Shown: positions 13,326-41,560, counted from the first letter of the whole stretch. The stretch: DNA of 63,501 nucleotides, filler included, from 5 parts of 5 records of this genome joined end to end with filler, not necessarily neighbours in it; one strand, 5' to 3'. Made by a program: numbers and translations. Notes: generated from the sequence alone by a model not told the origin.

Positions 13326-13333
13326 AATGGGTA

Positions 13334-15028: not shown

Positions 15029-15075
15029 TTTACGACCGAAGTAGAGTCGTAGTAGTAACTAGAGGTTTTTGAACG

Positions 15076-16594: not shown

Positions 16595-16639
16595 GTAGCA
16601 AAATACCGCACTTTGTTTTAAAAACGTTCAAACAATCCT

Positions 16640-25588: not shown

Positions 25589-25981
25589 ATGCACGACGAT
25601 GCCAACAAAGCACCTTTAGAAGGTGAAGTAATTAACGAAAGTACGTCTTCAGAACAGCCGGATACCACCATGGCGATGGTGATTTACGCGCTTTATTTGG
25701 CAAGCTTTTTGGTAGGGTTTACCTCACTGGTCGGCATCGTTATCGCCTATGTCTATCGTGGTAAAGGCCCTGAATGGCTAGATGAGCACTACCGTTACCA
25801 GATCCGTACGTTTTGGATTGGGCTGCTCTACGGCAGCATCGCCACGTTGCTAACGTTTATTCTGATTGGCATCCCCATGCTATTGGCACTGGCCGTATGG
25901 TTTATTGTTCGCTGTGTGAAAGGCTTTAAGGGTCTGCAGGAGAAGCGTGCGCCAACCAACGTTGACAGCTGGTTCCTGTAA
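25589..25981 (+). CDS. DUF4870-like small membrane protein
   Basis: IYALYL..GIVIAYV..WL.EHYRYQIRTFW..RCVKG. Confidence 0.75.
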   Translation: MHDDANKAPLEGEVINESTSSEQPDTTMAMVIYALYLASFLVGFTSLVGIVIAYVYRGKGPEWLDEHYRYQIRTFWIGLLYGSIATLLTFILIGIPMLLALAVWFIVRCVKGFKGLQEKRAPTNVDSWFL

Positions 25982-25984
25982 CTT

Positions 25985-26917
25985 ATGGCAGAGCAGTCAC
26001 CGTCTAACAAATCACGCTTCCAAGCACGTGCCATCACATCACTTTGGAAACTACTGGCGCGCTGGCCGCTTGGCGCGCTTTGGCGTATCGCCGTGCGGTT
26101 AGGTCCGCTGGTCTATCGCTTTAGCAAACGAGAGCGTCAGGTGACGGAAATCAATCTGGCAGTGGTTAACCCAGAAGCCACTGCCAGCCAGCGCAAAGCC
26201 CTTGCCATACAAAGCCTGCGCCACTCGGCGGCGACAATGCTGGAACTTGGCCATGCGTGGATGGCTGCGCCCGAAAAAGTAGAAGCCAGCATTTTGTCGG
26301 TTCATGGCCGAGATAAGCTAGACAGCGCACGTGCCGAAGGCCGCGGCGTCATTGTGCTTGCTCCGCACTTTGGTAACTGGGAGGTGCTTAATTTTTGGCT
26401 CTCCAGCCACTTCCCTTTTACCGCCATGTACGAACCACCCAAAATTGCCGACCTTGAGCCTATTATTCGCCATGGCCGCGAGCGCATGGGAGCCAGCTTG
26501 GTACCCACCAACGCCAGAGGCGTCGCTGCCCTTCTCAAAGCGCTTAAGCGCAGCGAAGCTATTGGCATCTTGCCGGATCAAGAACCGAACTGGGGCAGCG
26601 GTGTATTCGCCCCTTTTTATGGGCGCGATGCCTATACGGCAACGCTGCTACCGAAACTGGTCGCCCGCACTCAGGCAAGGGTAGTTACCGGCGTTGCCTT
26701 ACGGGTGCCTGGCAAGGGATTTGAAATTCATTTCCTTGACGCCGATGAGCAGGTTTACAGCGCCGATGATGTAGTCTCAGCCAGCGGTGTTAACGCTAGC
26801 GTAGAAGCGTCAATTGCACTTGATCCAACGCAGTATCAGTGGGAATACAAACGCTATCGCAAGGTCATAGAGCAACAGCAAGGGCTGGCAAACGCCAAAG
26901 AATTTCGGATTTACTAA
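25985..26917 (+). CDS. Lipid A late acyltransferase (LpxL/HtrB family)
   Basis: PHFGNWE, ILPDQ, PTQYQWEYKRY. Confidence 0.88.
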   Translation: MAEQSPSNKSRFQARAITSLWKLLARWPLGALWRIAVRLGPLVYRFSKRERQVTEINLAVVNPEATASQRKALAIQSLRHSAATMLELGHAWMAAPEKVEASILSVHGRDKLDSARAEGRGVIVLAPHFGNWEVLNFWLSSHFPFTAMYEPPKIADLEPIIRHGRERMGASLVPTNARGVAALLKALKRSEAIGILPDQEPNWGSGVFAPFYGRDAYTATLLPKLVARTQARVVTGVALRVPGKGFEIHFLDADEQVYSADDVVSASGVNASVEASIALDPTQYQWEYKRYRKVIEQQQGLANAKEFRIY

Positions 26918-26935
26918 CGGGTAACGAGGTAATTT

Positions 26936-27286
26936 ATGACCCAGCGTTATAGTCCCAATGAGGAAACGCGCCCGACACAAATTATTTACGCGCTCTATTT
27001 AGCAGGCCTAGTAACAGCCAATATTACGCTGTTGATTGGCGTTATAGTCGCTTACGTATATCGCAAAGAGGCAGCACCGTGGTTGCAAGCGCACTACCGT
27101 TATTTGATCCGGACTTTTTGGATAGGCTGCCTCTACTTTATCGCCACCTTTACCCTTAGCTTAATGCTAGTAGGCACCTTACTATGGCCGCTATTAGCCG
27201 TGTGGCTTGGTGTGCGCTGTATTATTGGCTGGCTCGCAGTGCGCAAGGGAGAACCGCCGGCTCGTCCTGGCAGTTGGCTCTGGTAA
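26936..27286 (+). CDS. DUF4870-like small membrane protein (paralog of 25589-25981)
   Basis: IYALYL..GVIVAYV..WLQAHYRYLIRTFW..RCIIG. Confidence 0.75.
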   Translation: MTQRYSPNEETRPTQIIYALYLAGLVTANITLLIGVIVAYVYRKEAAPWLQAHYRYLIRTFWIGCLYFIATFTLSLMLVGTLLWPLLAVWLGVRCIIGWLAVRKGEPPARPGSWLW

Positions 27287-27334
27287 CAACTAAGCAAGTC
27301 CCTATACCACCGCCGCTAAGGATGATGGGCTGGA

Positions 27335-28948
27335 TCATGGTGTCGCCCCTGTCGTTGACCCAGAAGAGGTTAATGCTGGAGTGCCAAAGTCTTGCTGTAG
27401 CCAATGACGCAGCTGGCTCATTTTCGCGGCCTCTTCAGGGCTTTTCAGTGATGGCAGCATGCCATCAATAAAACCACGTGCCTTAAAAGGTGCTAAGAGT
27501 CGGGGGTCTCCGCTAATCACATGGACAGGCACCGCTGCACTGGCGTTGTCGCCGGTAATCAGCGGTGCCGCCTGATGATCTCCCAGTACAATCAATAGAG
27601 TGTTGTCATCAACCACTCGCTCAGCCCAGCGTCCTGTGACCTTTACAGAGTAGTCTATTGACCACGCGTAATGGTCACGGATGCGTTCAATATCCTGCCA
27701 AAGCACTTCTGGCGGATCACCGGCCTCCTCCCAAGGGGCGAAAACACGCCCATCGCCGATCATCGACCAGTCTTCGAAAACGGGCAAAATGGGCGTCCAT
27801 GGTGCGTGGCTGGAGATAAGTGCGAGTTGCGCGAATACCGGCGCCTCACCCAACAAATGTCGCTGGGTGTAATCCAGCGTGAACTGATCGGGCATCGTGA
27901 CCCAGTTCAGCGCTGGCCCCGCATAGGGTATATCTTTCGCTACTGCAATCTGATCAAATCCGTAGGCCAGCCCTTCTGGCCAAGCCAACGTAATGGCTGG
28001 CATGACACTGAGCGTCCGCTGCCCAGTGCTACTAAAATCATTAATCAGCGTTGAATGATCGCTTTCCAGCATCAGTCGATACCATAGCTGATTATCAATC
28101 CAGCGACCGCTTAGTGCCGTGGCATGAGCAAGCCAAGACTGACCTCCCCGAATAGGCGCTTCTAGCAACCCCGAAACAACGTGTAGATCGCGCTGACCCA
28201 AACGTTGCTGTATGTCAGCTAGCGTAGGCAGTACGACACTGCTGTAGCGAGAATCATTAATGGCCGATACACCATAAGATTCAATAAACGTTAATAAGAC
28301 ATTGCGCCCTAACAAACCAGGTAATGGGCTAGGCTCTAATGGTGACGCCTGTAGCTGTTCGCTAAACGCCACTCTCGCCCGATGAGTCGCCACCACCTGC
28401 TCCCACTGGAAACGCGTGGTGTTAACAGCAGGTAGTGTTGATTTAGCGACTAATCGCTTGCCGTTAGCCTCGGAAACCGCAAAACCTGCCGCGGTGATCA
28501 TCACGAGGATGGCTAGAGCACCTGAAGCACGCCTCACCGATAGAGGCTTAGCAGGCAACAGCAATCGCAGCAGCATCCATAAACTACCTAGCAGGGTCGC
28601 ACTGCCCAACAACATCAGGAAAGTTGCTGCCAGTTGACCTACATTACCTACTAGCAAATGGTAGATAGAGCGCACCAAGGGCACGTCTAGATAGAGATTT
28701 AGTGATCGCCCAAACGCGGTGTGTGTCGCGGCATCGCCTAGGTTGGCCATCGTTACCAACGCCAGCCAACCTACCAACAAAATAGCTAACCAGCGACGTA
28801 AGCTACCAGGGCGAATAAGCAGCATCGCAGGGGCTATAAGCCATGCCTCCCACGCAATTAGAGGAGAGCCAATCTCACCGAAACGCCACCAAAGCGGCAA
28901 TACCAGTAGAAAGTTGAGCGTTATACACGTGAGTAGAAGACGAATCAT
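27335..28948 (-). CDS. Membrane-anchored alkaline-phosphatase-superfamily (sulfatase/LtaS/OpgB-like) protein
   Basis: About 5 N-terminal TM helices, then NVLLTFIESYG, GGQSWLAH, ISSHAPW and LGDHQ metal-site motifs. Confidence 0.75.
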   Translation of the reverse strand: MIRLLLTCITLNFLLVLPLWWRFGEIGSPLIAWEAWLIAPAMLLIRPGSLRRWLAILLVGWLALVTMANLGDAATHTAFGRSLNLYLDVPLVRSIYHLLVGNVGQLAATFLMLLGSATLLGSLWMLLRLLLPAKPLSVRRASGALAILVMITAAGFAVSEANGKRLVAKSTLPAVNTTRFQWEQVVATHRARVAFSEQLQASPLEPSPLPGLLGRNVLLTFIESYGVSAINDSRYSSVVLPTLADIQQRLGQRDLHVVSGLLEAPIRGGQSWLAHATALSGRWIDNQLWYRLMLESDHSTLINDFSSTGQRTLSVMPAITLAWPEGLAYGFDQIAVAKDIPYAGPALNWVTMPDQFTLDYTQRHLLGEAPVFAQLALISSHAPWTPILPVFEDWSMIGDGRVFAPWEEAGDPPEVLWQDIERIRDHYAWSIDYSVKVTGRWAERVVDDNTLLIVLGDHQAAPLITGDNASAAVPVHVISGDPRLLAPFKARGFIDGMLPSLKSPEEAAKMSQLRHWLQQDFGTPALTSSGSTTGATP

Positions 28949-29124
28949 CAGCGCTTCAACAGCATAGTAATCACCTAAATATTACACGCTTAATGGAATT
29001 TAAAGCTTGCACATGACCACAAAAATCATGTACCAACAATACAAATGGTATAACTTTTGTTGAAATATTTCATATACTGATTTTATGGTTACTACGCTGG
29101 CATGCAATCGAAAGGAACTCGCCC

Positions 29125-30654
29125 ATGAGTGTTCGTACTGCAGCAAAATGGATGTTGTCATTTAACTGTCTGATCGCCTTTTCTGCGGTTGCTAACGATG
29201 ATGGTGTTTTTGACCACGTTATTGAGCGTGCCCAAACCCTGGCCGATGCGCCTTATCAACCCCCAAATGAGACGCTTCCCAGCGCTCTGACGTCGTTAAA
29301 TTACGACCTGTATCGACAAATCCGTTTCAATCCCGAGCGAGCCTACTGGCGCGATGAAAGCCCTTTTAGTATGCAGCTATTTCATAGCGGATTTATATTT
29401 CAAACCCCCGTCACGATTAATGTGATCGACGATGGTGACGTTGAACCACTCTCTTTCTCGGCCGATGACTTTCAGTACGATGGTGATGCCAACCGTTTGT
29501 TAGAGCATGATTTAACGGGCAGCGGTCATGCCGGCTTTAGGCTGCACTATCCTATCAATAGTGATGATTATGCCGATGAATTTGCTGTTTTTCTTGGCGC
29601 AAGCTACTTCCGTCTAGTTGGCCGCGACCAAGCCTACGGTCTTTCTACCCGTGGTCTTGCCATTGATACCGCATTAGCCAGTGGTGAAGAGTTTCCCGAA
29701 TTTCGCGAATTCTGGCTCTATAAGCCTGATGAAGATTCTGACAGCGTTACGCTACTCGCACTCATGGATAGCCCATCGCTAAGCGGAGCCTACCGCATTA
29801 CGTTAACGCCGGGCGAGAGCACTGAGGCAGATGTAGAAGCAACGCTGTTTGCACGTTCTGATATAGCAAAGCTAGGGGTTGCGCCGCTCACCAGCATGTT
29901 CACCTTTGGGGAAGCCAGCACCGAGCGAGCTGATGACTTTCGTCCTCAGGTACATGATTCCGATGGTTTGCTAATCCACACGGGGGCCGACGAGTGGATC
30001 TGGCGGCCGTTGCAAAACCCCTCATCGGTTCGCGTATCAGCGTTTATCGACGATTCCCCCTCTGGGTTTGGTCTAATGCAGCGGGAGCGGGACTTTAGCC
30101 GCTACCTGGACCTTGAAGCCCACTACCATCGCCGCCCTAGCCAATGGGTCGAACCCCTTGCTGACTGGGGGCCAGGGCATGTAGAGCTCGTCGAAATTCC
30201 CACGCCAGATGAGACTCACGACAATATAGTGGCTTATTGGGTCGCTGAAGAGCCGCTCACAACTGGCGAGTCTCGCCACTTTCACTATCGAATGTTTACG
30301 CTCAATGAACAGCCCGAGGCTAACTCACTGGGCAAGGTTGTGCGCACCCGCCATGGCAGCGCAGCGGTTCCAGGCGAGGCCGACTCCCCGTCTGCTGATC
30401 AGCGCCAATTCATCGTCGATTTCCAGGGCGGCAAACTGGATGATCTGACATCAAGCGAGCCAATCGAGCTGGACATCAGTGTGCTCAATGGCGAGGTATT
30501 ACTACCTCAAGTCAAAACACTGCCCAACAACGGACAACGGGCCACTTTTCGACTGCCCCCCAGCAGCGAGCCCAGTGATATCCGGCTACGGCTGATGGTT
30601 GAGGGAGAGCCGATTACTGAAACCTGGAATTACGTGTGGTATCCCGATGCCTGA
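29125..30654 (+). CDS. opgG: Periplasmic glucan biosynthesis protein, OpgG/OpgD family
   Basis: Sec signal; YRQIRF, FLGASYFR, YGLSTRGLAID, RPQVHDSDGL, DNIVAYW, ETWNY. Confidence 0.9.
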   Translation: MSVRTAAKWMLSFNCLIAFSAVANDDGVFDHVIERAQTLADAPYQPPNETLPSALTSLNYDLYRQIRFNPERAYWRDESPFSMQLFHSGFIFQTPVTINVIDDGDVEPLSFSADDFQYDGDANRLLEHDLTGSGHAGFRLHYPINSDDYADEFAVFLGASYFRLVGRDQAYGLSTRGLAIDTALASGEEFPEFREFWLYKPDEDSDSVTLLALMDSPSLSGAYRITLTPGESTEADVEATLFARSDIAKLGVAPLTSMFTFGEASTERADDFRPQVHDSDGLLIHTGADEWIWRPLQNPSSVRVSAFIDDSPSGFGLMQRERDFSRYLDLEAHYHRRPSQWVEPLADWGPGHVELVEIPTPDETHDNIVAYWVAEEPLTTGESRHFHYRMFTLNEQPEANSLGKVVRTRHGSAAVPGEADSPSADQRQFIVDFQGGKLDDLTSSEPIELDISVLNGEVLLPQVKTLPNNGQRATFRLPPSSEPSDIRLRLMVEGEPITETWNYVWYPDA

Positions 30655-32626
30655 TCTCCACGCGTTGCGGCCTTCGATGCCCTGGCTTAACGGTCGCCGA
30701 GCCTTCCTTGCTTCTATAGTGTTAGCCACCAGCATCGGTGGCTGCATCGCGATGGCACAGGTCGTTGCCAATTTTTCCATGGGTTGGCAGCTCACCATGT
30801 TGATCCTATTTGCATTAACGTTTACTTGGATAGCGCTGGCTTTCTGGGGCGCGCTATGTGGCTTCGTGCTTTGTTCGCTACGCCGAGATCCGCTCAGTTT
30901 ACGTCGTCAAACCATTGTGAACCCCAATGCCAGCCTGCTAGTCAGCCGCACCGCGCTAATAATGCCTATTTATGCAGAACCTCCCATCCCGACCATTGCG
31001 GGGCTAGAAGCAACATGTCGTTCACTTCTCCAGCAAGCAGAAGCGTATGGTGCAGGGACACCCAGTGCTATCAACAAATACTTTGAAGTGTTTGTATTGA
31101 GCGATACCCAAGATTCAGCCATGGCAAACATCGAAGCGGCCCATGTGGCTGCCTTGCAACAGCGCCTTGCCGGACAGATAGCCGTGCATTACCGGCGACG
31201 TCCTAATAATGACGGCCGCAAAGCTGGCAATATTGCAGAGTTTTGCCGCCGCTGGGGCCGCCGCTATGACTACTTGGTGGTGCTAGATGCCGACAGCCTA
31301 ATGAGTGGCGCTACGCTACTGCATTTAGTCCATCGGATGCAGCGCCAACCCAGCGTAGGACTTATTCAAACGGTGCCTATTCCCGTTGGCCAACGCACGC
31401 TATTTGGTCGTTTTACCCAGCTAGCCTCAGCACTCTACAGCCCAATGCTGGCAGCGGGCCAAAGCTTCTGGCAGGGTGATGCGGCGAATTACTGGGGCCA
31501 CAACGCGATTATTCGCACACGCGCCTTTATGGCCCATGCCGGGTTACCTCTCCTTTCAGGTAAACCACCGCTGGGAGGAGAGCTATTAAGCCACGATTTC
31601 GTCGAAGCGGCTCTCCTGAAACGAGGTGGCTGGCAGGTGCTGCTCGATACCTCTGCGACCACTGCCGTATCTCGCCATAACCCTTACGCTAGCGCGTCAC
31701 ATAACAGCTTTGAAGCCATGCCGAGCAACATGCTCGACTTTGCCAAGCGTGACCGCCGCTGGCTACAGGGCAACCTGCAGCACTTACGCTTACTCACCGG
31801 CGCAGGGTTTCACCCGATTAGTCGGCTACACTTTTTATTCGGCGCGTTTGCCTACCTTTCTTCGCTTGTTTGGCTTGGGCTTCTACTCTGCACTAGCCTG
31901 ATGGTGGGTTATCAAGCCATTGAGACCACCTCAAATCCGCCGTTGCCTGAAGCCCTCTCTCTAGGGTTGTTAAGTGTAACGCTGGGTATGCTGATTGCGC
32001 CCAAGCTGTTGGGGCTATTACTAACGTTCTGGCAATGTCCCCATGCGTATGGCGGACGACTCAAGCTTGTCACCAGCACGTTATTGGAAATTGTGTTTGC
32101 CGCTTTGATTGCGCCACTGATGATGGCGTGGCATAGCTTATTTATCATCAACGTGTTGATTGGCCGAGCTATCGACTGGCAAACCCAACACCGGGGGGAG
32201 CGCTCGCTAAGTTGGCGAGAGACATGGCACCACACCGGGTGGATGACGCTGTGTGGTATTGCCTGGGCAGGCACGATGATGCTTTTTTCACCCTCGGCGT
32301 TCGGCTGGTTAACCCCCGCATGGCTGGGGCTGATTGGAGCTGCTCCGCTGGTGAAATACTCCAGCAGTGCCACCTGGGGAGGCCTCGTTAGCCGCAAGTT
32401 CGGCTTACTGCAAACACCTAGTTCAGCACAACAACCACCGCTTTTGGAAGACTTTGTCGCGTTAGAAAACCGCAGCCACCAATCCAGTGCCACCTTAGCT
32501 CGCTCGTTGCCAACACTTGCTCTAGCACTTCCCCAGGAACAGCCTGGCGATATGCCCTGCCAGTCATTTCGATGTCACGTTCAAACAGCAACCGAGCATG
32601 CACCATCCGTTAAGGAGCCCTACTAA
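30647..32626 (+). CDS. opgH: Glucan biosynthesis glucosyltransferase OpgH (GT2)
   Basis: RKAGNI, LDADSLM, NYWGHNAIIR, SHDFVEA, RDRRWLQGNLQH; ATG 30647 overlaps the opgG stop. Confidence 0.93.
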   Translation: MPDLHALRPSMPWLNGRRAFLASIVLATSIGGCIAMAQVVANFSMGWQLTMLILFALTFTWIALAFWGALCGFVLCSLRRDPLSLRRQTIVNPNASLLVSRTALIMPIYAEPPIPTIAGLEATCRSLLQQAEAYGAGTPSAINKYFEVFVLSDTQDSAMANIEAAHVAALQQRLAGQIAVHYRRRPNNDGRKAGNIAEFCRRWGRRYDYLVVLDADSLMSGATLLHLVHRMQRQPSVGLIQTVPIPVGQRTLFGRFTQLASALYSPMLAAGQSFWQGDAANYWGHNAIIRTRAFMAHAGLPLLSGKPPLGGELLSHDFVEAALLKRGGWQVLLDTSATTAVSRHNPYASASHNSFEAMPSNMLDFAKRDRRWLQGNLQHLRLLTGAGFHPISRLHFLFGAFAYLSSLVWLGLLLCTSLMVGYQAIETTSNPPLPEALSLGLLSVTLGMLIAPKLLGLLLTFWQCPHAYGGRLKLVTSTLLEIVFAALIAPLMMAWHSLFIINVLIGRAIDWQTQHRGERSLSWRETWHHTGWMTLCGIAWAGTMMLFSPSAFGWLTPAWLGLIGAAPLVKYSSSATWGGLVSRKFGLLQTPSSAQQPPLLEDFVALENRSHQSSATLARSLPTLALALPQEQPGDMPCQSFRCHVQTATEHAPSVKEPY

Positions 32627-33408
32627 TGCCTTCTGCTTTTTTTGATCGGCTCCGCAGTGCCAGCGGTATGGCGCGTTCACTATTTATTTACTGGCGGCCT
32701 GGAAGGCAAAGGGGTCTGAAGCAGTTATATCGTCCGTTTATTCAACCGGGCGATATCGCTTTTGATATTGGCGCTCACTTAGGCGACCGTAGTGCCGCCT
32801 TCCACGCGCTAGGTGCTAAGGTAGTAGCACTGGAGCCGCAGCCAGCACTGGCCAACTGGTTTAAACGAATACTCAATCGACCGAACATTACGCTCTTACC
32901 ACTGGCCGCTGGACCGCAACCCGGCTATGCGGATATCGCCATCAGTGTTAGCAACCCGACCCTCTCTACCCTAGCGACCGAATGGCGACATCAGGTGGGC
33001 GAACGAAATCCTGGCTTTCAGCACGTACAGTGGGAACAGCAGCTAAGAGTGGAAGTCACCACACTGGATCAACTGATCGCTACTTACGGCGAACCAAGCT
33101 TTATAAAAATTGATGTTGAAGGGTTTGAAGCAGAAGTCTTGATGGGTCTTAACCATCCGGTAGCAGCACTTTCAGTCGAGTTTGTTGCGGGCGTGTTAGA
33201 GGTCAGCCATGCCTGCGTTGAACAGCTGTCCCGTCTTGGCGACTACCGCTTTAATGCAATTGCCGGTGAGCAACGCCACTTTCGCTGGGCAACCTGGCAA
33301 ACCCCTGAAACCATTACCCAGTGGCTTAACGATGGCGTTGACGGCTTAGCCTCTGGGGATCTCTACGCCTGCCGCGCCGATCATCCGCTGTTAAACGAAG
33401 CCGCATAA
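32626..33408 (+). CDS. FkbM-family methyltransferase
   Basis: FDIGAHLG, ALEPQP, TTLD, FIKIDVEGFE; TAATG coupling to opgH. Confidence 0.9.
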   Translation: MPSAFFDRLRSASGMARSLFIYWRPGRQRGLKQLYRPFIQPGDIAFDIGAHLGDRSAAFHALGAKVVALEPQPALANWFKRILNRPNITLLPLAAGPQPGYADIAISVSNPTLSTLATEWRHQVGERNPGFQHVQWEQQLRVEVTTLDQLIATYGEPSFIKIDVEGFEAEVLMGLNHPVAALSVEFVAGVLEVSHACVEQLSRLGDYRFNAIAGEQRHFRWATWQTPETITQWLNDGVDGLASGDLYACRADHPLLNEAA

Positions 33409-33409
33409 C

Positions 33410-33465
33410 TCTTCAAAAAACGATTTTAAAACACTGCTTTTAAAACATAGCTTTCAAAACAAGAG
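33410..33465. repeat. Four imperfect 14-bp tandem repeats (core TTTYAAAACA)
   Basis: tcttcaaaaaacga / ttttaaaacactgc / ttttaaaacatagc / tttcaaaacaagag. Confidence 0.65.
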
Positions 33466-33472
33466 AATCTGC

Positions 33473-34261
33473 ATGATTTATCACTGGCAAACCCTCACCG
33501 CTCCCCAGCTCGCCTCGATTGCCGAAGGTGATCCAGTCGCAGTGATCACCTTGGGGGCCATTGAGCAGCACGGTACTCACCTGCCGCTGGGTACCGACCT
33601 GATCATTGGTGAAGGGTTACAAGCCGCCATGTTAGACATGATTGACCCAGCACTCGACGTGCTGTGTCTACCATCAATTGCCGTCGGTGCGAGCGATGAG
33701 CACGCCAGCTTTGCTGGAACGCTTAGCCTACCCGCCCCACTCGCCATTGCAATGCTAGAGGCTTACGGCGCAAGCATTGCGCGTACGGGGATAAAAAAGC
33801 TGGTGCTGATTAATAGCCACGGTGGCAATAAAGCCGTGATGGATCTTGCCGCACTGACCCTACGCAAACAGTTTGAAATGCGCGTGGTGAAAGCCACCTA
33901 TACGCGGCTACCGCCGTTGGAAGGCGCTATTAACGCCGATGAGCTGCGCTATGGATTGCATGGCGGATTGTTGGAAACCGCCATCATGCTGCATTTAGCG
34001 CCTGAGCTTGTGCAGCTCGACAGCTACCAACCGACTCCATCGGCAATGCCTAAAGGTGACGCCCTGGTCAGTCCAGAGGGTAGCGCAGCGTTTGCCTGGC
34101 TTGCCGAGGACCTGAGTAGGTTCGGCGTTGCCGGTGATGCAACGGGTGCTCATCAAGCATTGGGTGAACGGTTAGTCAGGCACTACGCCACTCAGTTGGC
34201 GCAGGTGGTGGCCGAAACCGCCCACCTGCCACCGTTTACCACTGGTAAAACGCCAGATTAA
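33473..34261 (+). CDS. Creatininase-family amidohydrolase (FAPy deformylase/ArfB-like)
   Basis: GAIEQHGTHLPLGTD, NSHGGN, HGGLLET. Confidence 0.9.
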   Translation: MIYHWQTLTAPQLASIAEGDPVAVITLGAIEQHGTHLPLGTDLIIGEGLQAAMLDMIDPALDVLCLPSIAVGASDEHASFAGTLSLPAPLAIAMLEAYGASIARTGIKKLVLINSHGGNKAVMDLAALTLRKQFEMRVVKATYTRLPPLEGAINADELRYGLHGGLLETAIMLHLAPELVQLDSYQPTPSAMPKGDALVSPEGSAAFAWLAEDLSRFGVAGDATGAHQALGERLVRHYATQLAQVVAETAHLPPFTTGKTPD

Positions 34262-35361
34262 CGCCCACGACCCTCAAGCACCTCGTCTAAGAAATGCCCT
34301 GCCCGGTTGGCTTTGGCGCTTAGGTAGCGGTGATTGTGATCCGTCACACTGCCGTAGAGCGCCTGACGTGAGACGACTTCAATCCCCCCTTCACGCAGTG
34401 CTGCCATTTTTAGCGGGTTGTTAGTCAGCAGCTGAACTTTATCGATCGCTAGCGCATTGAGCATATCCACCGCGACAGCGTATTGGCGCTCGTCGTCGCC
34501 AAACCCTAGTACTTGATCGGCATCGACGGTGTCTAAACCGCCATCTTGCAAGGTGTAGGCGCGCAGTTTATTGGCTAAGCCAATTCCCCGCCCCTCTTGT
34601 GCTAAATAAAGCAGCACGCCGCCACCCATCGCTTGAATATCAGCCACCGCGTTACGCAACTGTTCGCCACAGTCACAGCGCAGGCTGCCGAACAGATCGC
34701 CAGTGAGGCAAGCCGAGTGCATCCTCAAAGGAACCGCCCCATGATTGGCTTTCAAATCACCAATCACTACGGCCACATGCTCACGCAAACCATCAGGTTC
34801 ACGGAACAGCACAAAACGGCTCTCAGGCGCATCTTCAAGAGGAATACGCGCTTCACTGACACGCTTTAGCATCCCCGGCGCACCGGCTAAACACGTCTCT
34901 GCATCGCGGGCATTCACTTCTAACAGCTCGCCTTTTGATAACTGCTGAGCAATATGCTCGGCGGATGTCGCACTGACCTCTGCGCAGAGCGCCGCCGGTA
35001 TCAATAGCGCACGACGCATAAGTGCCACAGCGCCTCTCTCTCCCACGCCAGCAGGCTTCAGGCCGCTTAAAAGCGAATGAGCCTTCGACGCTTCATTGGA
35101 CACAGCAAGGTGATGCAAATCACGCTCACTGATTTGCTCGGTGAGCGGTAAACAGGCCGCATCCGCCTTAAGCGACATGCCCATTGCCTGCAAGCGATGA
35201 CGCGTTAATACCAGCGCTGGCCGAGAGCCGGAGAGTTTCGCCAGTGAATCGACCGACACACTGCCTTCAAGAGCCTGTACCAACAGACGTTGCTCTCCGG
35301 TATTAATTACCACGGGCAATCCACGGCGAATATCGAAAATAGCGCGTTCAATGTGATACAT
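34258..35361 (-). CDS. ribA: GTP cyclohydrolase II with degenerate RibB-like N-terminal domain
   Basis: RMHSACLTGD..SLRCDCG, QEGRGIGL.NKLRAY.LQD, LLTNNP.K, N..YL..K...GH; GGAGG RBS before ATG 35361. Confidence 0.9.
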   Translation of the reverse strand: MYHIERAIFDIRRGLPVVINTGEQRLLVQALEGSVSVDSLAKLSGSRPALVLTRHRLQAMGMSLKADAACLPLTEQISERDLHHLAVSNEASKAHSLLSGLKPAGVGERGAVALMRRALLIPAALCAEVSATSAEHIAQQLSKGELLEVNARDAETCLAGAPGMLKRVSEARIPLEDAPESRFVLFREPDGLREHVAVVIGDLKANHGAVPLRMHSACLTGDLFGSLRCDCGEQLRNAVADIQAMGGGVLLYLAQEGRGIGLANKLRAYTLQDGGLDTVDADQVLGFGDDERQYAVAVDMLNALAIDKVQLLTNNPLKMAALREGGIEVVSRQALYGSVTDHNHRYLSAKANRAGHFLDEVLEGRGR

Positions 35362-37228
35362 GTAGGCCTCCAAGTTGCCGGTTGGGGCGGACAACGTTTG
35401 CTTGCGTCGGGCAACATGGCCCCGCATGATGAGTTGCTGTTTTTTGAGTGGAGATACCATGCCGAGTACCAACAACGTAACGATCGATATCGACCAAGCG
35501 TGGGCATGGTTGCTGGACACTCAACAGGGCATCAAAAATGACGCCACTATGACGCTTGATACCCATGGCGGTTGGCACTCTCCCCACACAGTCACAAGCG
35601 CCGCGCAGGAGCTGTTGACGTGTTTGCTGCCACTGGTGCGTCATTCGAGCTGGGTGGTTGCCCAACTGGGGCAAAGCCTGGATGGGCGCATCGCCACGGA
35701 AAGCGGTCACTCCCACTACATCAATGGCGTTGAAAGTTTGGTGCATCTGCACCGACTGCGGGCGCTGGCCGATGCCGTGGTGATCGGCGCAGGCACGGCG
35801 AGTGCTGATAATCCTCAGCTCACCGTGCGCCGCGTAACGGGGAAGCACCCTACCCGAGTGGTGATTGACCCACGAGGACGCGTGCCCGTTGATTTGGCGC
35901 TGTTCACCACGTCGGCCGCCCCCACGCTGCATCTCACCGGGCCAGAGGTAACGGTGGCGCCAACGGCCGCTGAACACTGCGTGCTGCCGCTGGATACCAA
36001 CGGTCAGTTCCGTCCCACCGACGTTATTGCCCTGCTGGCAGATCGTGGTCTTACGCGGGTATTGGTAGAAGGCGGCGGCGTCACTGTTTCGCAGTTCATT
36101 GAAGCGAACGCGGTTGACCGCTTGCATTTGCTGGTTGCGCCGCTGCTGATCGGTTCCGGCCGACCTGGGCTGCAGATGACGCCCATCGATACCCTTGAGA
36201 ATGCGTTGCGCCCGACGATGCGCTCTTTCCGGTGCGGGGACGACACGCTGTTCGACGTAGTGCTGAGCGGACGCACTGCCTGACTGAGAACCAGACGGCG
36301 CAGCATGTGTTCGTGAAGCCAGCGCTGCCCAAATGCCAGGCAGGCTAGCCATCAGTACTAACACACCATAAGCCAGTGATATCGCCACACCTTGCGCCGA
36401 TGGCAAGCCAACAAACATCCAAATGCCTGCGGCGGCGCCTTCTCGCACCCCCCACCCGGCAATCGAAAGGGGCACCAGCATGGCAAGCAGCAACACTGGA
36501 GCCAACGCTAAAATATCTAAGGTCGCCAGCTCCACACCGATTGCCCGAGCCGCGCAGGCCATTACCAAGCCATAGCTAAGCACGATAGCAAGAGAAGAGA
36601 TCAGTTGCCGTGGCCAGACGTCACGCTGCAGCAGCCCGCGACGCATATCCTGCCCTAATGCAGCGCACCAAGCGGGTAGCGTTACCGCCGAGCGCCGCAG
36701 CCAGACCATCAGCGTCACACCGGCCACCATCACGATAACCGCTACGCCCGCCACTACCATCAAGCCACTGAAGCCCAGCGCTGTTAGCCAGAGTGGTGAC
36801 GTGAACAAGGCGATTAGTGTGTAAAGTGCAATCGCCAGCTGCCCAGAGGCACGCTCAATCACCACCGCACGCCAAGCACTTCCCTTCGAAGAAGACTGAC
36901 GGGCATGGCGATGAGCACGCCCCGCATCACCCAACACACCGCCAGGCAACAACTGGTTAACCAACAACGCTAAGTAGTACTCCCGCAGTGCATAACGGTA
37001 GCGCAGCGGCACGTCGATTAAGCCTGCCGTCAATTGCCATCGCCACGCGCTCAACATCACTTGCAGCACACTGATAAGTAGTGCGAGGGCCATCCAGCCC
37101 GGCGCAAAACGCTGCACTTCTGCCATTACCGCGTCTGGCTCTACCCACAGGGCAACAGCGGCCAGCAGCCCTAAGCTCACTAACCCTTTTTGCACCCACG
37201 GGGTTCTCAGCCAGCGCCAGCGTCGCAT
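35348..37228 (-). CDS. Lysylphosphatidylglycerol-synthase-TM/UPF0104 flippase-like protein (aa 1-~305) with a ~320-aa read-through extension antisense to the RibD-like gene
   Basis: SAWRW, NQLLPGGVLGDAGR, VIER, PLSIAGWGVREG; no in-frame stop until 35348. Confidence 0.8.
   Translation of the reverse strand: MRRWRWLRTPWVQKGLVSLGLLAAVALWVEPDAVMAEVQRFAPGWMALALLISVLQVMLSAWRWQLTAGLIDVPLRYRYALREYYLALLVNQLLPGGVLGDAGRAHRHARQSSSKGSAWRAVVIERASGQLAIALYTLIALFTSPLWLTALGFSGLMVVAGVAVIVMVAGVTLMVWLRRSAVTLPAWCAALGQDMRRGLLQRDVWPRQLISSLAIVLSYGLVMACAARAIGVELATLDILALAPVLLLAMLVPLSIAGWGVREGAAAGIWMFVGLPSAQGVAISLAYGVLVLMASLPGIWAALASRTHAAPSGSQSGSASAQHYVEQRVVPAPERAHRRAQRILKGIDGRHLQPRSAGTDQQRRNQQMQAVNRVRFNELRNSDAAAFYQYPRKTTICQQGNNVGGTELTVGIQRQHAVFSGRWRHRYLWPGEMQRGGGRRGEQRQINGHASSWVNHHSGRVLPRYAAHGELRIISTRRACADHHGIGQRPQSVQMHQTFNAIDVVGVTAFRGDAPIQALPQLGNHPARMTHQWQQTRQQLLRGACDCVGRVPTAMGIKRHSGVIFDALLSVQQPCPRLVDIDRYVVGTRHGISTQKTATHHAGPCCPTQANVVRPNRQLGGLHVSH
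35459..36283 (+). CDS. Stand-alone RibD C-terminal (pyrimidine reductase) domain protein
   Basis: QSLDGRIA, HRLRA.ADAVVIGAGT..ADNPQLTVR, VLVEGG, APLLIG; no deaminase HAE/PCxxC; GGAG RBS. Confidence 0.88.
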   Translation: MPSTNNVTIDIDQAWAWLLDTQQGIKNDATMTLDTHGGWHSPHTVTSAAQELLTCLLPLVRHSSWVVAQLGQSLDGRIATESGHSHYINGVESLVHLHRLRALADAVVIGAGTASADNPQLTVRRVTGKHPTRVVIDPRGRVPVDLALFTTSAAPTLHLTGPEVTVAPTAAEHCVLPLDTNGQFRPTDVIALLADRGLTRVLVEGGGVTVSQFIEANAVDRLHLLVAPLLIGSGRPGLQMTPIDTLENALRPTMRSFRCGDDTLFDVVLSGRTA

Positions 37229-37232
37229 GGGG

Positions 37233-39179
37233 TTAGCCCTCGTCCGCTGGCAGCGCCAGCAAGTCGCGGTGGCCTACCCAAATACCGATCTCGCCTTTGG
37301 CTACCTGACCCAGGCGCTGATCACGCCAAAGAGCAATCCGTGACGCCGCCTCAGGAGCCTGTTCGCTAGCAGCGCTCGCCCATCCTTCAATCAACGCGCC
37401 CATTAAGGGGTACTGCGCTGGCTCGCCCGCCGCCAAGCGCCATGGTGTTTCAGCCTCGTTAACACGATAACCGTGGCCAGCCATCCCTTTAGCTAGCGCA
37501 CTGTGAGCAGCGCCGCCTAATGCACCGCCTAGGCCCTTATCCCGGCTCTGGTGTGCGTTGAACAGCTCACAGACCCAGCGATCGTCAAGGTCGTTCAGAG
37601 GTTGCTGCTGGGCATTGGTAAAGTACCATTCGCCGGTAATGCTTAGAGTGATAAGAAGCGCTTGGCGATGTTTAGCACACTGTGCAGCCAAGGCATCGAT
37701 CCACTCTTGAGACACCAGATCAATCAGCGCAGATGCCGTCACTACGTCACAGTGCGTAAGAGCTGGGTGATCCAGCTGTTTAAGGGAGACGCAGCGGGTT
37801 TCGACCTGCAGTGGCTCACCTTTACCGGTGTTCAATTGGCTGGTTCGCGAGTAGGCTTCATTCAGTAAGGCCGGGTCATGATCAATCAGCATCCAGCGCT
37901 GGGCATGCTGCAAGCGAGGTGCAAGAAACTGGCTATTGCTGCCGCGTCCACAGCCTAAATCCGCTAGTGTGATTGGCGAGCAAGCTTCTGCTCTCCACTT
38001 ATCTTCTGATAACCAGCTCGCTAACGCCTCGACCAACGCTTGGCTGCGCGAACTGGCATCGACGCTTTCACGCAGCGACAGCCAATCCGCGGTAAATTGG
38101 CTTCCTGCCAACAATGTCGAAGGTTGCTGCAGCGCCTCGGCAAACGCCTTTCCTGCAGCCTGCCAGTCGCCCAAGCGGTCACGTGCAGCGGCGGCGCCTG
38201 CGCGTAGCTCCGTACGTAGCGCCTCATCATGGCAGAAAGCCGCCAGCGCACTCGACAGCGCCTGAACATCCCCCGGCGCTACGCTGATGCCAGCCCCTTT
38301 GGATAAGGTATCCCGCAGTGCTCCGCCGGTGGTGGTAATCACCGGCAAACCATGGGCTAGCGCTTCAGTCACCACCATGCCGTAGCCTTCATACCAAGAA
38401 GGCAACACCAGTGCATGGGCATTCTGATACGCAGCTTCCAGGGTCGCTGCATCACATTCGCCGTGCAGCGTTACCCAATCACCAAGTTGATGGTTGTCGA
38501 TCAGCGTTTGAACTCGCTCCGTAAATGCGGCATCACGCGCACCGCCAAAGCAGTCGCATCGCCAGAGGCCACGCTCAACACCCGCCAAGGCTTGAACCAA
38601 AATATCCTGCCCCTTGCGCGGGGTCAGCGTTGCCACGCATAGCAGGCGGATAGGTTCGTTGGGTTGCGCCGCGGGGCTGACCGGAGCACGTTCAACGCCA
38701 GGTTCCACCACGCTGATAGGGGCACCAAATGGCAGCGCGTACTGTTCCGCCAGTGCTGTTACACGGCGTTCAGTAAAGCGACTGGTCACAATCACTCTAT
38801 TCACATGCGCCAGCCCGAGCAGTTCGCAACGGTGAAAACGCTGCTGATCCATCTCACTCAAGCCCTGCTCATCACCTAACGGATGATGCAGTAACGCAGT
38901 GATATCAAGGCGCTCAGCATGGTCAGCTACCACATCGGGCAATGCCCCCATGGCTAGGCCGTCAATAATCACTCGCGAACGATCCTGTAATGCAGAAAGC
39001 GCACTGGCTAGCGCTTGAGCCGCCTCATCATCGGCATCAGGAAAACGCCCTGCCAACCCCACCACATTGATAGCCAGCCCACGCTTGCGCAGCGCAGCGA
39101 CAATATGGGCGTCGTAAATATACCCGCCGGTACGCTGGTCTGGATCGCCAGCCACTATCAAGGTCAATGGCTGACTCAT
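37233..39179 (-). CDS. Fusion of GT4 glycosyltransferase and class I SAM-dependent methyltransferase
   Basis: TGGYIYD, PRKGQD, EGYGMVVTEALAHGLP (GT-B EX7E); after aa ~360 WLSLRE.VD, ADLGCGRGSN, SALIDLVS. Confidence 0.88.
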   Translation of the reverse strand: MSQPLTLIVAGDPDQRTGGYIYDAHIVAALRKRGLAINVVGLAGRFPDADDEAAQALASALSALQDRSRVIIDGLAMGALPDVVADHAERLDITALLHHPLGDEQGLSEMDQQRFHRCELLGLAHVNRVIVTSRFTERRVTALAEQYALPFGAPISVVEPGVERAPVSPAAQPNEPIRLLCVATLTPRKGQDILVQALAGVERGLWRCDCFGGARDAAFTERVQTLIDNHQLGDWVTLHGECDAATLEAAYQNAHALVLPSWYEGYGMVVTEALAHGLPVITTTGGALRDTLSKGAGISVAPGDVQALSSALAAFCHDEALRTELRAGAAAARDRLGDWQAAGKAFAEALQQPSTLLAGSQFTADWLSLRESVDASSRSQALVEALASWLSEDKWRAEACSPITLADLGCGRGSNSQFLAPRLQHAQRWMLIDHDPALLNEAYSRTSQLNTGKGEPLQVETRCVSLKQLDHPALTHCDVVTASALIDLVSQEWIDALAAQCAKHRQALLITLSITGEWYFTNAQQQPLNDLDDRWVCELFNAHQSRDKGLGGALGGAAHSALAKGMAGHGYRVNEAETPWRLAAGEPAQYPLMGALIEGWASAASEQAPEAASRIALWRDQRLGQVAKGEIGIWVGHRDLLALPADEG

Positions 39180-39574
39180 AGCGCTCCTTCATAACTTGCC
39201 CACGCCACATGAGATTCATGCAGTTTGATCTCCATATGCGTCAGCCCCTGAGCGGTGGCGCCCATTTTTCCTGCTTTAATGGCAGCCGCCAGCTGGTCAA
39301 AAATCACCTTGGCCATAAATTCCGTAGTAGTGTTTTTACCGCTAAACTCGCTTACCTCATCAAGGTTGCGATAGTTGTAAGCCGCCAGCACCTCTTTAAC
39401 CGTCTCACTAGCCAAACCGATATCAATCACTAGACCATCCTGGTCAAGTTCAGGGCGCTGGAATACTACGTCCACGACATAGGTGGCGCCGTGGGTGCGT
39501 TGGGCAGGGCCGAATATTTCCCCATTAAAACTATGGGCAATCATAAAATGGTCACGAACGCATAAACGGTACAT
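39176..39574 (-). CDS. Non-canonical 6-pyruvoyl-tetrahydropterin-synthase-family (T-fold, PTPS-IV-like) protein
   Basis: MIAHSF..FGPAQRTHGATY, TTEF, LHES; AGGAG RBS; stop overlaps the next ATG. Confidence 0.85.
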   Translation of the reverse strand: MYRLCVRDHFMIAHSFNGEIFGPAQRTHGATYVVDVVFQRPELDQDGLVIDIGLASETVKEVLAAYNYRNLDEVSEFSGKNTTTEFMAKVIFDQLAAAIKAGKMGATAQGLTHMEIKLHESHVAWASYEGAL

Positions 39575-39608
39575 AGACACTCCTGTCGTGTTAAATAAGC
39601 CACATCGC

Positions 39609-40598
39609 CTAAGCGGGCAATGGATAACGAATTCGATGGCAAAGCGCTGTGCTATCAGGCCCAAACAGAGCAGGCGCCAGCGTTGGAAAATCGGCAAAAT
39701 CGCTCTCACCGCTAATCAGCGCATCTAACCGCGGGTCGGTGAGTAAGCGTAAAGCGAGCGCTAAACGGCGGCGATAATTCCAGCGCGGCTGCAACTTGGC
39801 AGGCAGTTGCCCAACCTGGCTGGCGCGAAGCGTTAAACGCTGGGAGTGAAAAGCGCCCCCGAGTGGTAGCGACACATCGCCTTCGCCAAACCAGCTCATT
39901 TCAATCACCCGGCCTTCGTTGCCCAGCAAGCTCATGGCCAGCCTCAGACCATCCGACTGACCACTAGCATGGATCACGCAATCTTGGTCGCTGGGTGCCT
40001 GCTCTGGTGTACAGAAGGGAATCCCCAAATGCGTTGCCAACGCTTCTCGCTCGGGATTAATGTCGACCAGGCACACTTCTACACCTGGAATTTGCGCACA
40101 CAGATACGCCACCAGTGCACCGACAACGCCAGCGCCCACCACACACACGCGCTCGCCAAGCATGGGGTTAGCATCCCACACGCCGTTAATGGCAGTTTCC
40201 ATATTGGCGGTTAGCACAGCACGGTAAGCGGGAACATCGTCGGGGAGCGCTAAAACAGCGTCTACCGGAACGACGTAGTAGTCCTGGTGCGGAAAAAGGC
40301 AAAAAACGGTTTTATTCAATAAATGATCTGGCCCCTGCTCCACATAACCAACGTTGCAGTAGCCGTATTTCACGGGCGTAGGAAACTCACCCGCTTGGAA
40401 GGGAGCGCGCATGCGCAAATATTCACTTTGCGGCACCCGTGCGTTAAACACCAGCGACTCAGTGCCACGGCTTACGCCACTATAAAGGGCACGAACCCGT
40501 ACCTCATTGTCGTCGGGTGATGCTAGTGGCTCCTGCTTGAGCTCACCATGGGTAGGGTGGGTCACCCAAAAAGCCGTAGCGGTATCAGGCGGCAACAT
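39609..40598 (-). CDS. MDR-superfamily (alcohol dehydrogenase-like) oxidoreductase
   Basis: SGVSRGTE, PVKYGY, GAGVVG Rossmann motif; the usual catalytic-Zn Cys and GHE are replaced. Confidence 0.85.
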   Translation of the reverse strand: MLPPDTATAFWVTHPTHGELKQEPLASPDDNEVRVRALYSGVSRGTESLVFNARVPQSEYLRMRAPFQAGEFPTPVKYGYCNVGYVEQGPDHLLNKTVFCLFPHQDYYVVPVDAVLALPDDVPAYRAVLTANMETAINGVWDANPMLGERVCVVGAGVVGALVAYLCAQIPGVEVCLVDINPEREALATHLGIPFCTPEQAPSDQDCVIHASGQSDGLRLAMSLLGNEGRVIEMSWFGEGDVSLPLGGAFHSQRLTLRASQVGQLPAKLQPRWNYRRRLALALRLLTDPRLDALISGESDFADFPTLAPALFGPDSTALCHRIRYPLPA

Positions 40599-40659
40599 GA
40601 CATTTCCTTATGGTTTAAGCGCTTCATCCCTCCATACAGCGTAGCCTAGAAAGCGAAGC

Positions 40660-40689
40660 GGCTGCTTAAGCCCTGGCTGCTTAACCCCT
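40660..40689. repeat. 15-bp tandem direct repeat in a divergent promoter region
   Basis: ggctgcttaagccct / ggctgcttaacccct (1 mismatch). Confidence 0.7.
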
Positions 40690-40825
40690 GTAAGCGCGAA
40701 GATGATTTGAAACAACTATATTCACATCATGGACAACCTTACCTTCTTATACAAGAATGGTACATAAGAAATAGTTTGCACACTTTAATTCAACCGCGGG
40801 CCAGTCAGCCGCTTTGCGAGTAAGC

Positions 40826-41560
40826 ATGCCCTCTCTTTCCAACACCTCCAGTGTCTCTTTACCTAAGCGGTTTTACACCTTGGCGGAGATAGCCCTGGCC
40901 AGCCTATTACTCGCAGGCTTAGGATCGATGCTGCCGGGATTAGTCGCCAGCGCTGCAAACTGGTGGTTAGCGGTTGGCTTCTACATTGTGATGGGCACAC
41001 TGTTGGTTTGTTTTTGGCCCCATGGCCCGCTCGGTTGGGCAAACCGGGTAACGCTTGGGCGCGGCGTACTCGTCGCCATCGTGGCAGGGGCACTGGCAGC
41101 GAATGCCTTTACTAACGCAATTTGGCTATGGCTAGCGGTGGCCGTCATTGCGCTATTACTGGATGGCGTGGATGGCTGGATTGCCAGGCGCACTAAAACC
41201 CACACCACGTTTGGCGCGCGCTTTGATATGGAGCTGGATGCAGTGTTGATTCTGATACTCTGTATCGGCTTATTGCAGAGCGAACATCTAGGCGCTTGGG
41301 TACTACTGATTGGCGGCATGCGTTATTTATTTATCGCCGCTAGCTGGCCATTTGCGTGGTTAAAAGCACCGTTATTCGAAAGTTTCCGGCGTAAAGCAGT
41401 GTGCGTGTGGCAGGTCGTTGCATTGCTGCTGGCGTTAATGCCATTCACCTCTCCTCTTGTTGCCAGCCTGCTGGCACTGAGTGCGTTAGCCTCGCTCAGC
41501 TACTCATTTGGCTTCGATGTGTGGTGGCTGTACCAACAACACAAACATGACGCCCACTAG
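40826..41560 (+). CDS. CDP-alcohol phosphotransferase family protein
   Basis: ANRVTLGR and the complete DxxDGxxAR...GxxxDxxxD motif (DGVDGWIARR..FGARFDMELD). Confidence 0.92.
   Translation: MPSLSNTSSVSLPKRFYTLAEIALASLLLAGLGSMLPGLVASAANWWLAVGFYIVMGTLLVCFWPHGPLGWANRVTLGRGVLVAIVAGALAANAFTNAIWLWLAVAVIALLLDGVDGWIARRTKTHTTFGARFDMELDAVLILILCIGLLQSEHLGAWVLLIGGMRYLFIAASWPFAWLKAPLFESFRRKAVCVWQVVALLLALMPFTSPLVASLLALSALASLSYSFGFDVWWLYQQHKHDAH

Follow-up and report, generated by a model that had tools for sequence, protein, structure and literature searches.

The locus at positions 27335-41560 of the window, by which we mean the whole 63,501-nucleotide stretch of DNA analysed here, holds 12 tightly packed genes and raises the question of what they make and where in the cell the product goes. 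A reading made before any database search (the sequence-only reading) had proposed an undescribed pathway in which GTP-derived pterin or pyrimidine chemistry is coupled to lipid activation, export and periplasmic glucan synthesis. The genes lie on a single Vreelandella-like contig piece (24887-43657) bounded by N spacers. Their 6-pyruvoyl-tetrahydropterin synthase-like (PTPS) protein has 98% identity to proteins of Vreelandella and other Halomonadaceae. The nearest genome, G001, is without the cluster, and genome-wide tests were run on relatives' genomes.

The core of the locus is the known, unsolved PTPS-IV (SCO6650-type) cluster, to which we add two features: a link to periplasmic glucan and an antisense bridge across the ribD gene. 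The sequence evidence points to a real, widespread orphan pathway whose end appears tied to OpgB-like transfer and, in many taxa, to OpgGH. The structure of PTPS-IV is solved (3D7J), no product is established for it in the literature examined, and our analysis names a candidate end for its pathway. A specific transferase and an easily purified candidate acceptor make this directly testable by mass spectrometry. If true, a nucleotide-derived heterocycle that serves both as lipid head group and as glucan substituent would be new envelope chemistry in at least four phyla.

The PTPS gene (39176-39574, minus strand; COG0720 subfamily) encodes FGPAQ in place of CxxxHGH, a replacement that is invariant in 31 sequences. 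The protein matches SCO6650 of Streptomyces coelicolor (PDB 3D7J) over its full length (E 2.8e-48), so that the link to SCO6650 put forward in the sequence-only reading is borne out. FGPAQ defines PTPS-IV in PMC5445326, where GTP cyclohydrolase II (GCH II; PF00925) and RibD-C are listed as neighbours, as they are here. The accessible part of that paper mentions no product, no LtaS-type transferase and no opgGH; the PTPS-GCH II-RibD neighbourhood is already in print, so the core cluster is in part described. SCO6655 has been assigned "a new function", according to the accessible part of PMC13151069. Streptomyces-like loci share the gene order CDP-alcohol phosphotransferase (CDP-AP), medium-chain dehydrogenase/reductase (MDR), PTPS, family 4 glycosyltransferase (GT4), methyltransferase, flippase, creatininase and GCH II, although two of them have Met where the window GCH II keeps Tyr105. 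A literature search, with most subscription papers outside its scope, found no product or osmoregulated periplasmic glucan (OPG) link for the PTPS-IV cluster and no description of such an antisense bridge.

We surveyed PTPS-IV loci in named genomes, retaining the best 80 of at least 600 stretches and counting neighbours within 10 kb; several loci are truncated by contig ends. Neighbours of PTPS-IV in these 80 best loci were GT4 (79), MDR (77, and upstream of PTPS-IV in 77), methyltransferase (74), CDP-AP (65), RibD (62), GCH II (43), creatininase (38), the transferase (34), flippase (33), FkbM (31), OpgG (12) and OpgH (11). The carriers include Pseudomonadota, Acidobacteriota, Gemmatimonadota and Actinomycetota, and no PTPS-IV relative was found on viral contigs. 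As the sequence-only reading anticipated, the heterocycle genes and the tailoring and export genes are found together with opgGH elsewhere, in members of the Gammaproteobacteria, Alphaproteobacteria and Gemmatimonadota.

All 12 open reading frames (ORFs) were confirmed in 27335-41560, with measured junction overlaps of 1-14 nt: opgG/opgH 8 nt, opgH/FkbM 1 nt, PTPS/GT4 4 nt, creatininase/GCH II 4 nt (convergent) and flippase ORF/GCH II 14 nt. Pfam and NCBIfam name 11 of them as had been proposed, with the Pfam match of the MDR gene below cut-off; the twelfth (27335-28948) has no match in either database and is LtaS/GacH/EptA-like by predicted fold. The three modules described earlier consist of real genes, but the modules are interleaved and not contiguous. 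The genes form six strand blocks: the transferase (minus); opgG, opgH, FkbM and creatininase (plus); GCH II (minus); ribD (plus); MDR, PTPS, GT4-methyltransferase and flippase (minus); and CDP-AP (plus). The 12 genes are not one operon.

The transferase and its proposed link to periplasmic glucan

The twelfth ORF (27335-28948, minus strand, 537 amino acids (aa)) encodes a putative LtaS/OpgB-type phospho-head-group transferase, an assignment made from a fold model. Hydropathy indicates ~4 N-terminal membrane helices, followed by a predicted periplasmic domain of the alkaline-phosphatase fold (model confidence, pLDDT, 93). The model matched LtaS best (VIA Z 22.0, root-mean-square deviation (rmsd) 3.7, 266 aligned residues), followed by GacH (VIA Z 21.6, rmsd 3.3, 258 aligned), and sulfatases scored lower (Z ≤18.3). 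The transferase found no match among PDB sequences, and in fold alignments identity to the solved LtaS, GacH and EptA members is at most 19%, with Ser at the nucleophile position. E223, S271, D354, H381, D457 and H458 are invariant in 122 sequences. We assign roles to E223, S271, D457, H458 and H381 by the LtaS motifs (Glu and Asp-His as metal ligands, Thr/Ser as nucleophile) and not by a superposition of residues, and Ser271 is likely the nucleophile. The LtaS/OpgB-like label is thus upheld by a head-group-transferase fold in the model and by conserved catalytic-type residues, and the enzyme would act by shifting phospho-head groups from lipid onto glycan.

The closest functional parallel is with OpgB and OpgE of E. 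coli, which transfer phospholipid head groups (phosphoglycerol and phosphoethanolamine) onto OPG, as described in the accessible part of PMC3818809. With these two enzymes, and with LtaS, GacH and EptA, the window transferase shares a membrane anchor and a sulfatase-like catalytic domain, and we propose for it likewise a lipid donor and a glucan acceptor. Unlike OpgB and OpgE, the window transferase comes with its own CDP-AP and GTP-derived pathway, which suggests a dedicated lipid donor and not phosphatidylglycerol or phosphatidylethanolamine.

The transferase has 1870 matching representatives, and we followed it through 121 Halomonadaceae, 151 Actinomycetota and 151 Gemmatimonadota genomes. 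It is present in 70 Halomonadaceae, all within the 72 that have PTPS-IV, the other 49 having neither; the two genes are often far apart on the genome. Three Actinomycetota carry it, each with a strong PTPS-IV match (five others have weaker PTPS matches and no transferase), and in Gemmatimonadota transferase and PTPS-IV occur in the same two genomes. A transferase without PTPS-IV was not found in any of the three taxon surveys. Conversely, 44 of 50 taxonomically diverse genomes drawn from the 80 PTPS-IV loci contain the transferase, and five of eight scanned transferase homologues longer than 700 aa have an N-terminal CDP-AP domain. Because every transferase genome in the three surveys (70/70, 3/3 and 2/2) has PTPS-IV, and because of the CDP-AP fusions, we conclude that the transferase belongs to the pathway. 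Three Vicinamibacterales loci (L099, L100, L101) have a second, distant transferase paralogue outside the cluster, beside DUF305 genes in two of the three.

This association bears on the idea that the core (RibD, MDR, PTPS-IV, GT4 and methyltransferase) makes a soluble pterin glycoside like cyanopterin, with CDP-AP, flippase and transferase forming a separate lipid module. Cyanobacterial biopterin glucoside and cyanopterin synthesis use the same combination of a pterin-type enzyme, GT4 and a methyltransferase, and biopterin glucosyltransferases are GT4 enzymes (5zer, E 1.3e-6). Cyanobacterial pterin glycosides start from GTP cyclohydrolase I and are soluble, whereas the present cluster has GCH II, RibD and a lipid arm. 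The core is without CDP-AP in 15 of the 80 best loci, and four divergent actinobacterial loci lack a match to CDP-AP, flippase and transferase. Against this, CDP-AP flanks the core in 65 of the 80 and the transferase never appeared without PTPS-IV, which makes a soluble product improbable. The four actinobacterial loci (L198-L201) keep only MDR, PTPS and GT4, with RibD in three of the four, and are possibly a sister pathway.

The gene next to the transferase, head-to-head with it, is opgG/mdoG (29125-30654, plus strand; PF04349 E 3e-188), which encodes a periplasmic glucan protein. It is followed by the opgH/mdoH glucosyltransferase gene (30647-32626, plus strand; GT2; NF003958 665 bits, cut-off 419; alternative TTG start 30599). 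The window OpgH is of a short clade (~660 aa), separate from a long (~850 aa) paralogue, and genome G004 has both types. The cultured carrier Vreelandella boliviensis LC1 (L010) encodes both the short and the long OpgH. OpgH is present in 88 of the 121 Halomonadaceae, including all 72 with PTPS-IV, and PTPS-IV is in none of the 33 OpgH-less genomes. Short OpgH and transferase adjoin in 33 of the 34 Halomonadaceae with both, and in 10 of these PTPS-IV lies elsewhere. Of the 29 diverse carriers that have OpgH, 14 have it no more than 12 kb away from PTPS-IV or the transferase. In a metagenome survey anchored on the transferase (best-scoring 80 of 572 loci), opgG/H is adjacent to the transferase in 59 of 80; it is present in 42 of the 48 loci with at least 2.5 kb upstream, and in 26 of the 32 of those below 58% identity. 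The head-to-head transferase/opgG pair persists in these loci though other genes reorder.

A quick tree of 33 OpgH proteins, built with no bootstrap, places 14 cluster-linked proteins in a 15-member clade of Gammaproteobacteria and Gemmatimonadota. Three further linked proteins fall in two other places, and the starred branches force three changes. Within the 151 Gemmatimonadota, OpgH occurs in one genome, the cluster carrier chosen as survey centre. In one Vreelandella lineage (L006, L007, L008 and L133, and in metagenomes L216, L217, L221-L223, L225 and L226) opgH has been lost from the cluster and opgG still adjoins the transferase; a long OpgH is encoded elsewhere in G003. In Halomonas ventosae (L103, G005:C5:28000-47000), two short-clade opgGH pairs flank the transferase.

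In our judgement there is an even chance that the full model is right, namely that these genes produce a phospholipid head group from GTP and decorate periplasmic beta-1,2-glucan with it. Several points weigh against it. The Halomonadaceae genomes are interrelated, so Fisher values on their co-occurrence overstate the evidence, and the choice of the best 80 of 572 metagenome loci favours the window's transferase subfamily. Sixteen of the 88 Halomonadaceae genomes with OpgH do not have PTPS-IV, including seven of 41 with the short clade, and the transferase is beside no opgH in about half of the Halomonadaceae carriers. The opgGH coupling put forward earlier survives as co-occurrence and fails as a general rule: in 21 of the 50 diverse PTPS-IV carriers OpgH had no match. 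Of these 21, many of them incomplete metagenome-assembled genomes, seven contain a PF10091 ORF of the size of Cgs, and the other 14 contain neither this ORF nor OpgH. Monoderm Actinomycetota, in which OpgH was not searched genome-wide, carry the transferase. Flippase and FkbM are each found in under half of the 80 PTPS-IV loci, and profile and fold searches with the GT4 and methyltransferase domains returned generic class I relatives for the methyltransferase and no clue to the substrate.

Some of these exceptions may have an explanation. Three of four short-OpgH genomes without PTPS-IV that were opened keep a GT4 gene or a transferase fragment beside opgG, which suggests that such genomes arose by loss of the pathway. 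The acceptor in the Actinomycetota is probably a different one because they are monoderm. The OpgH-less carriers, with the 14 that lack a Cgs-sized ORF, and the actinobacterial transferases also favour another view, in which a GTP-derived lipid head group is transferred outside the membrane to some other envelope polymer or in an LtaS-like polymerisation, with opgGH a co-regulated passenger; LtaS, the best fold match, is itself a polymerase. We regard this as unlikely, given that the transferase/opgG head-to-head pair outlasts many reshuffles, that the transferase remains with opgGH when the cluster splits, and that Gemmatimonadota OpgH was seen solely with the cluster.

The predicted head group

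The enzyme types and their genomic coupling are read directly from the loci, and the substrates and reactions given below are what we infer from them. The variant GCH II (34258-35361, minus strand; PF00925), aligned to 2bz0, keeps the three zinc cysteines, Tyr105 and Arg128 and has Glu53 replaced by Ala and Asn118 by Asp (E. coli numbering). It overlaps a creatininase-fold amidohydrolase (33473-34261, plus strand; PF02633 E 8e-61), a probable formyl-aminopyrimidine deformylase whose EQHG, NSHGGN and HGG motifs are kept in 40 sequences; its score with the NCBIfam ArfB model is 26 (cut-off 180). The creatininase is present in 28 of 29 loci with Asp118 GCH II and in none of the seven with the Asn118 type, as well as in loci where GCH II has Tyr changed to His (3/3) or Met (2/2) or an unparsed motif (4/4). 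Because it tracks the Asp118 and not the Asn118 type, these patterns suggest two routes to the diaminoribosylamino-pyrimidinone phosphate (DARP). In the window, GCH II would open GTP and probably halt at the formyl intermediate, which the creatininase would deformylate to DARP.

The ribD gene (35459-36283, plus strand) encodes the reductase domain alone (PF01872 only), and its closest solved relatives are the archaeal-type DARP reductases 6p8c and 2azn. One residue sets the protein apart: it is Gln in the window, Gln or His in 50 of 56 parsed sequences, Lys in B. subtilis RibD and Asn in the archaeal-type reductases. We take the Lys to be tied to a deaminated substrate. The product of the reductase-only RibD would then be a non-deaminated ribitylamino-pyrimidinone phosphate.

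The archaeal and fungal riboflavin route (ArfA, ArfB, reduction before deamination) uses the same creatininase-fold deformylase and a stand-alone reductase. It differs in that the cluster is without a deaminase, lumazine synthase or riboflavin synthase, and in that carriers have housekeeping GCH II-family and RibD genes elsewhere. Pfam and NCBIfam searches matched none of the 12 ORFs to riboflavin synthase, lumazine synthase, FolE, QueC or QueE, and none contains a deaminase domain, in agreement with the earlier exclusion of riboflavin, folate and queuosine synthesis. It is highly improbable that GCH II and RibD are spare riboflavin genes, or that PTPS-IV serves F420 as suggested for archaea, a tie made by unpublished work cited in the accessible part of PMC5041015. 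All five carrier genomes have a further GCH II-family gene and a further RibD outside the cluster, none of the five has a CofD match, and the cluster has no deaminase domain.

The MDR gene (39609-40598, minus strand; ADH_zinc_N below cut-off) encodes a dehydrogenase without the usual catalytic-zinc Cys, and its closest solved relatives are polyol dehydrogenases (L-iditol 2-dehydrogenase 4oh1, E 1.4e-9). It may oxidise a ribityl hydroxyl; oxidation at C2' would permit ring closure to a dihydropterin-type phosphate, whose side chain PTPS-IV could reshape. PTPS-IV retains the TTE motif, which we take to be the pterin-ring binding site. The MDR/PTPS-IV step is the weakest of the proposal; if reduction came first and C2' oxidation second, the net result would correspond to an Amadori step. 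A pterin and an open aminopyrimidine appear about equally likely.

The same genes can be read differently, with a glycosylated, methylated amino-polyol or polyol as head group, like aminopentanetetrol lipids, and the purine ring as scaffold or cofactor. Methylated aminopentanetetrol head groups are known (PMC6423904), the MDR resembles polyol dehydrogenases, and the cluster has two methyltransferases. However, the accessible part of PMC6423904 reports those lipids from one methanogen only and not from the Halobacteria tested, and a literature search on this idea found no support. None of the 12 gene products is recognisably a ring-cleaving enzyme, and the TTE motif presumably binds a pterin ring. 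An amino-polyol head group is, on balance, quite unlikely.

Under the preferred reading of a GTP-derived heterocycle, the remaining genes would tailor the head group, attach it to lipid and move it outwards. The GT4 glycosyltransferase is fused to a class I S-adenosylmethionine-dependent methyltransferase (37233-39179, minus strand; PF00534, PF13649 (Methyltransf_25)), an arrangement found as one ORF in 10 survey loci; many class I enzymes match the methyltransferase model (best Z 19.7, rmsd 3.6, 243 aligned). Together with an FkbM-family methyltransferase (32626-33408, plus strand; PF05050, TIGR01444), it may decorate the heterocycle. The CDP-AP (40826-41560, plus strand; PF01066; alternative TTG start 40814), with an intact DxxDGxxAR...GxxxDxxxD motif that is kept in 66 sequences, would couple the head group to phosphatidyl from CDP-diacylglycerol. 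The lipid would be flipped by a putative flippase, an MprF-like (LPG_synthase_TM) membrane domain with seven hydrophobic segments (36290-37228, minus strand; PF03706 E 5e-39, residues 16-298). Finally, the LtaS-fold enzyme, by analogy with OpgB, would pass the phospho-head group via Ser271 to glucan from the adjacent OpgGH.

The antisense frame across ribD

The flippase gene named in the sequence-only reading does encode an MprF-like domain, but its ORF has no stop after the membrane domain and reaches 626 aa, which had gone unnoticed. The extension is an in-frame antisense bridge ORF of 313 codons (35348-36289, minus strand; no Pfam match in the extension), exactly antisense to the whole of ribD and its upstream region, and it stops 14 nt inside the GCH II start. 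A stop in this antisense frame requires a TTA, CTA or TCA codon in ribD, and the window ribD has none in 275 codons, whereas other genes average 4.8%.

We examined 71 Halomonadaceae loci in which ribD is convergent, counting that of the window; one locus, truncated by a contig end, had no ribD. In 62 of the 71, ribD lies on the opposite strand within a co-oriented run. The 62 loci with GCH II downstream have nine antisense-stop codons in ribD against 260.8 expected, and 56 of them have zero. By comparison, the nine loci where GCH II is not downstream have 39 against 26.4 expected, with no locus at zero, and seven loci from outside the Halomonadaceae have eight against 7.8. Because the loci share ancestry they do not count as independent trials, but the GCH II-less state needs at least three changes on starred branches. 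The bridge thus represents family-wide selection on an antisense frame that is switched off upon loss of the downstream gene.

Two simpler causes were rejected. Codon bias does not fit: the other 12 query genes have 0.9-3.4% TTA/CTA/TCA against 0.06% in ribD, other A-ending codons are used, and shifted frames contain stops. Nor does a sequencing error at the flippase stop, for 37 other genomes read through likewise.

Both ends of the frame tend to be joined to genes. In 38 of the 62 loci the frame continues on from the flippase, and in 22 it has a Shine-Dalgarno-like (SD-like) site, by a permissive test, and a start placed -11 to +10 nt from the upstream stop. Where the flippase is absent, the bridge starts at the methyltransferase stop in three of five loci. 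Its end falls between -60 and +20 nt relative to the GCH II start in 45 of the 62, nine of them as an ATGA overlap. Telling against a strict coupling, it stops over 60 nt short of GCH II in 15 loci and runs more than 100 nt into it in two.

What the frame encodes is less constrained. The fourfold-site divergence of ribD is 0.553 against 0.57-0.61 in its neighbours within Vreelandella, and 0.251 against 0.287, ~12% lower, in 17 close pairs. Since these sites diverge almost like those of neighbouring genes, the openness of the antisense frame is selected more than its sequence.

We propose that in the Halomonadaceae MDR, PTPS, GT4/methyltransferase and flippase probably share with GCH II one transcript, which crosses ribD although that gene points the other way. 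The gap would be bridged by translation of the antisense ORF, most likely avoiding Rho polarity and delivering ribosomes to GCH II. Rho loads on untranslated RNA, and short ORFs may only deliver ribosomes (PMC12548453); the accessible text of that paper does not contain the words antisense or opposite. Four RNA runs gave unstranded contigs, as long as 42 kb, which span the whole region and are uninformative on strand or expression. Selection for the open frame is an observation, and we consider its translation for this purpose probable. The bridge offers a testable reason for some long antisense ORFs persisting without a useful protein.

A similar layout is known from the S. aureus non-contiguous operon menE-menC-MW1733-ytkD-MW1731, which has the same opposite gene between co-oriented pathway genes. 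There the crossed region is an internal untranslated region, according to the accessible part of PMC7154746, whereas here it is a stop-depleted ORF coupled at both ends, and co-transcription is presumed. The P. aeruginosa genes olg1 and olg2 have the same ~1 kb exact antisense frame and stop depletion (PMC8850804, accessible part). They are nearly species-restricted and show reduced synonymous variation, whereas the bridge is family-wide, is weakly constrained in sequence and is kept open only where the downstream gene is present. A true overlapping gene of this kind, encoding a protein with its own function, would be in keeping with the SD-like site and start in 22 loci and with the ~12% lower fourfold divergence of ribD. 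However, either a flippase fusion or a free start is tolerated, and stops accumulate each of the at least three times that the downstream GCH II is lost. Mirror-frame identity of the bridge is ordinary (0.465 against 0.38-0.45 for other genes), with no Pfam match. An Atlas search with the antisense tail also gave no match, which tells neither absence nor novelty. A functional bridge protein is accordingly an unlikely account.

The most specific version of our proposal combines a pterin-type, glycosylated, methylated phospholipid in many bacteria, the grafting of its heterocycle onto periplasmic beta-1,2-glucan to give a redox- or light-active glycan, and a Halomonadaceae antisense ORF that is translated but not for its protein. 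We put it forward tentatively, as rather doubtful in its entirety.

The antisense frame is likewise open in two Salinisphaera loci (L025, L059), where it stops 13-14 nt into GCH II. L025 nests among the Halomonadaceae on the tree, which suggests acquisition by transfer. At the flippase/ribD junction (36280-36305), close strains have repeat insertions, displayed as 30 letters; the indels listed for these strains also include the loss of 3 nt at 35569.

Neighbouring genes and smaller observations

The window (1-63501) joins five unrelated pieces with N spacers, of which the first (1-16686) has ~40% GC and the second ~65%. A scan for promoters (3, with 9.6 expected) and terminators (15, with 15.4 expected) gave chance levels. 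At the left edge of the cluster (25589-27286), a lipid A acyltransferase gene lies between two short similar ORFs, one of which matches DUF4870. Two RNA runs have 1384 extra letters at 27286-27335, after the transferase. In L103, L104, L105 and L133 a mannose-1-phosphate guanylyltransferase gene, absent from the window, directly follows the transferase; GDP-mannose is a possible donor for the GT4.

Near CDP-AP two long ORFs recur; neither matched Pfam, and we took both for shadow frames. In other taxa, YceI-like genes (11 loci) and cytochrome b561 genes (seven loci) recur beside CDP-AP, the transferase or opgH (for example L012:7631-8500, L033:974-1732, L050:16077-16667 and L088:13057-13692); neither family is among the 12 genes of the window. 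These recurring neighbours hint at a membrane redox link.

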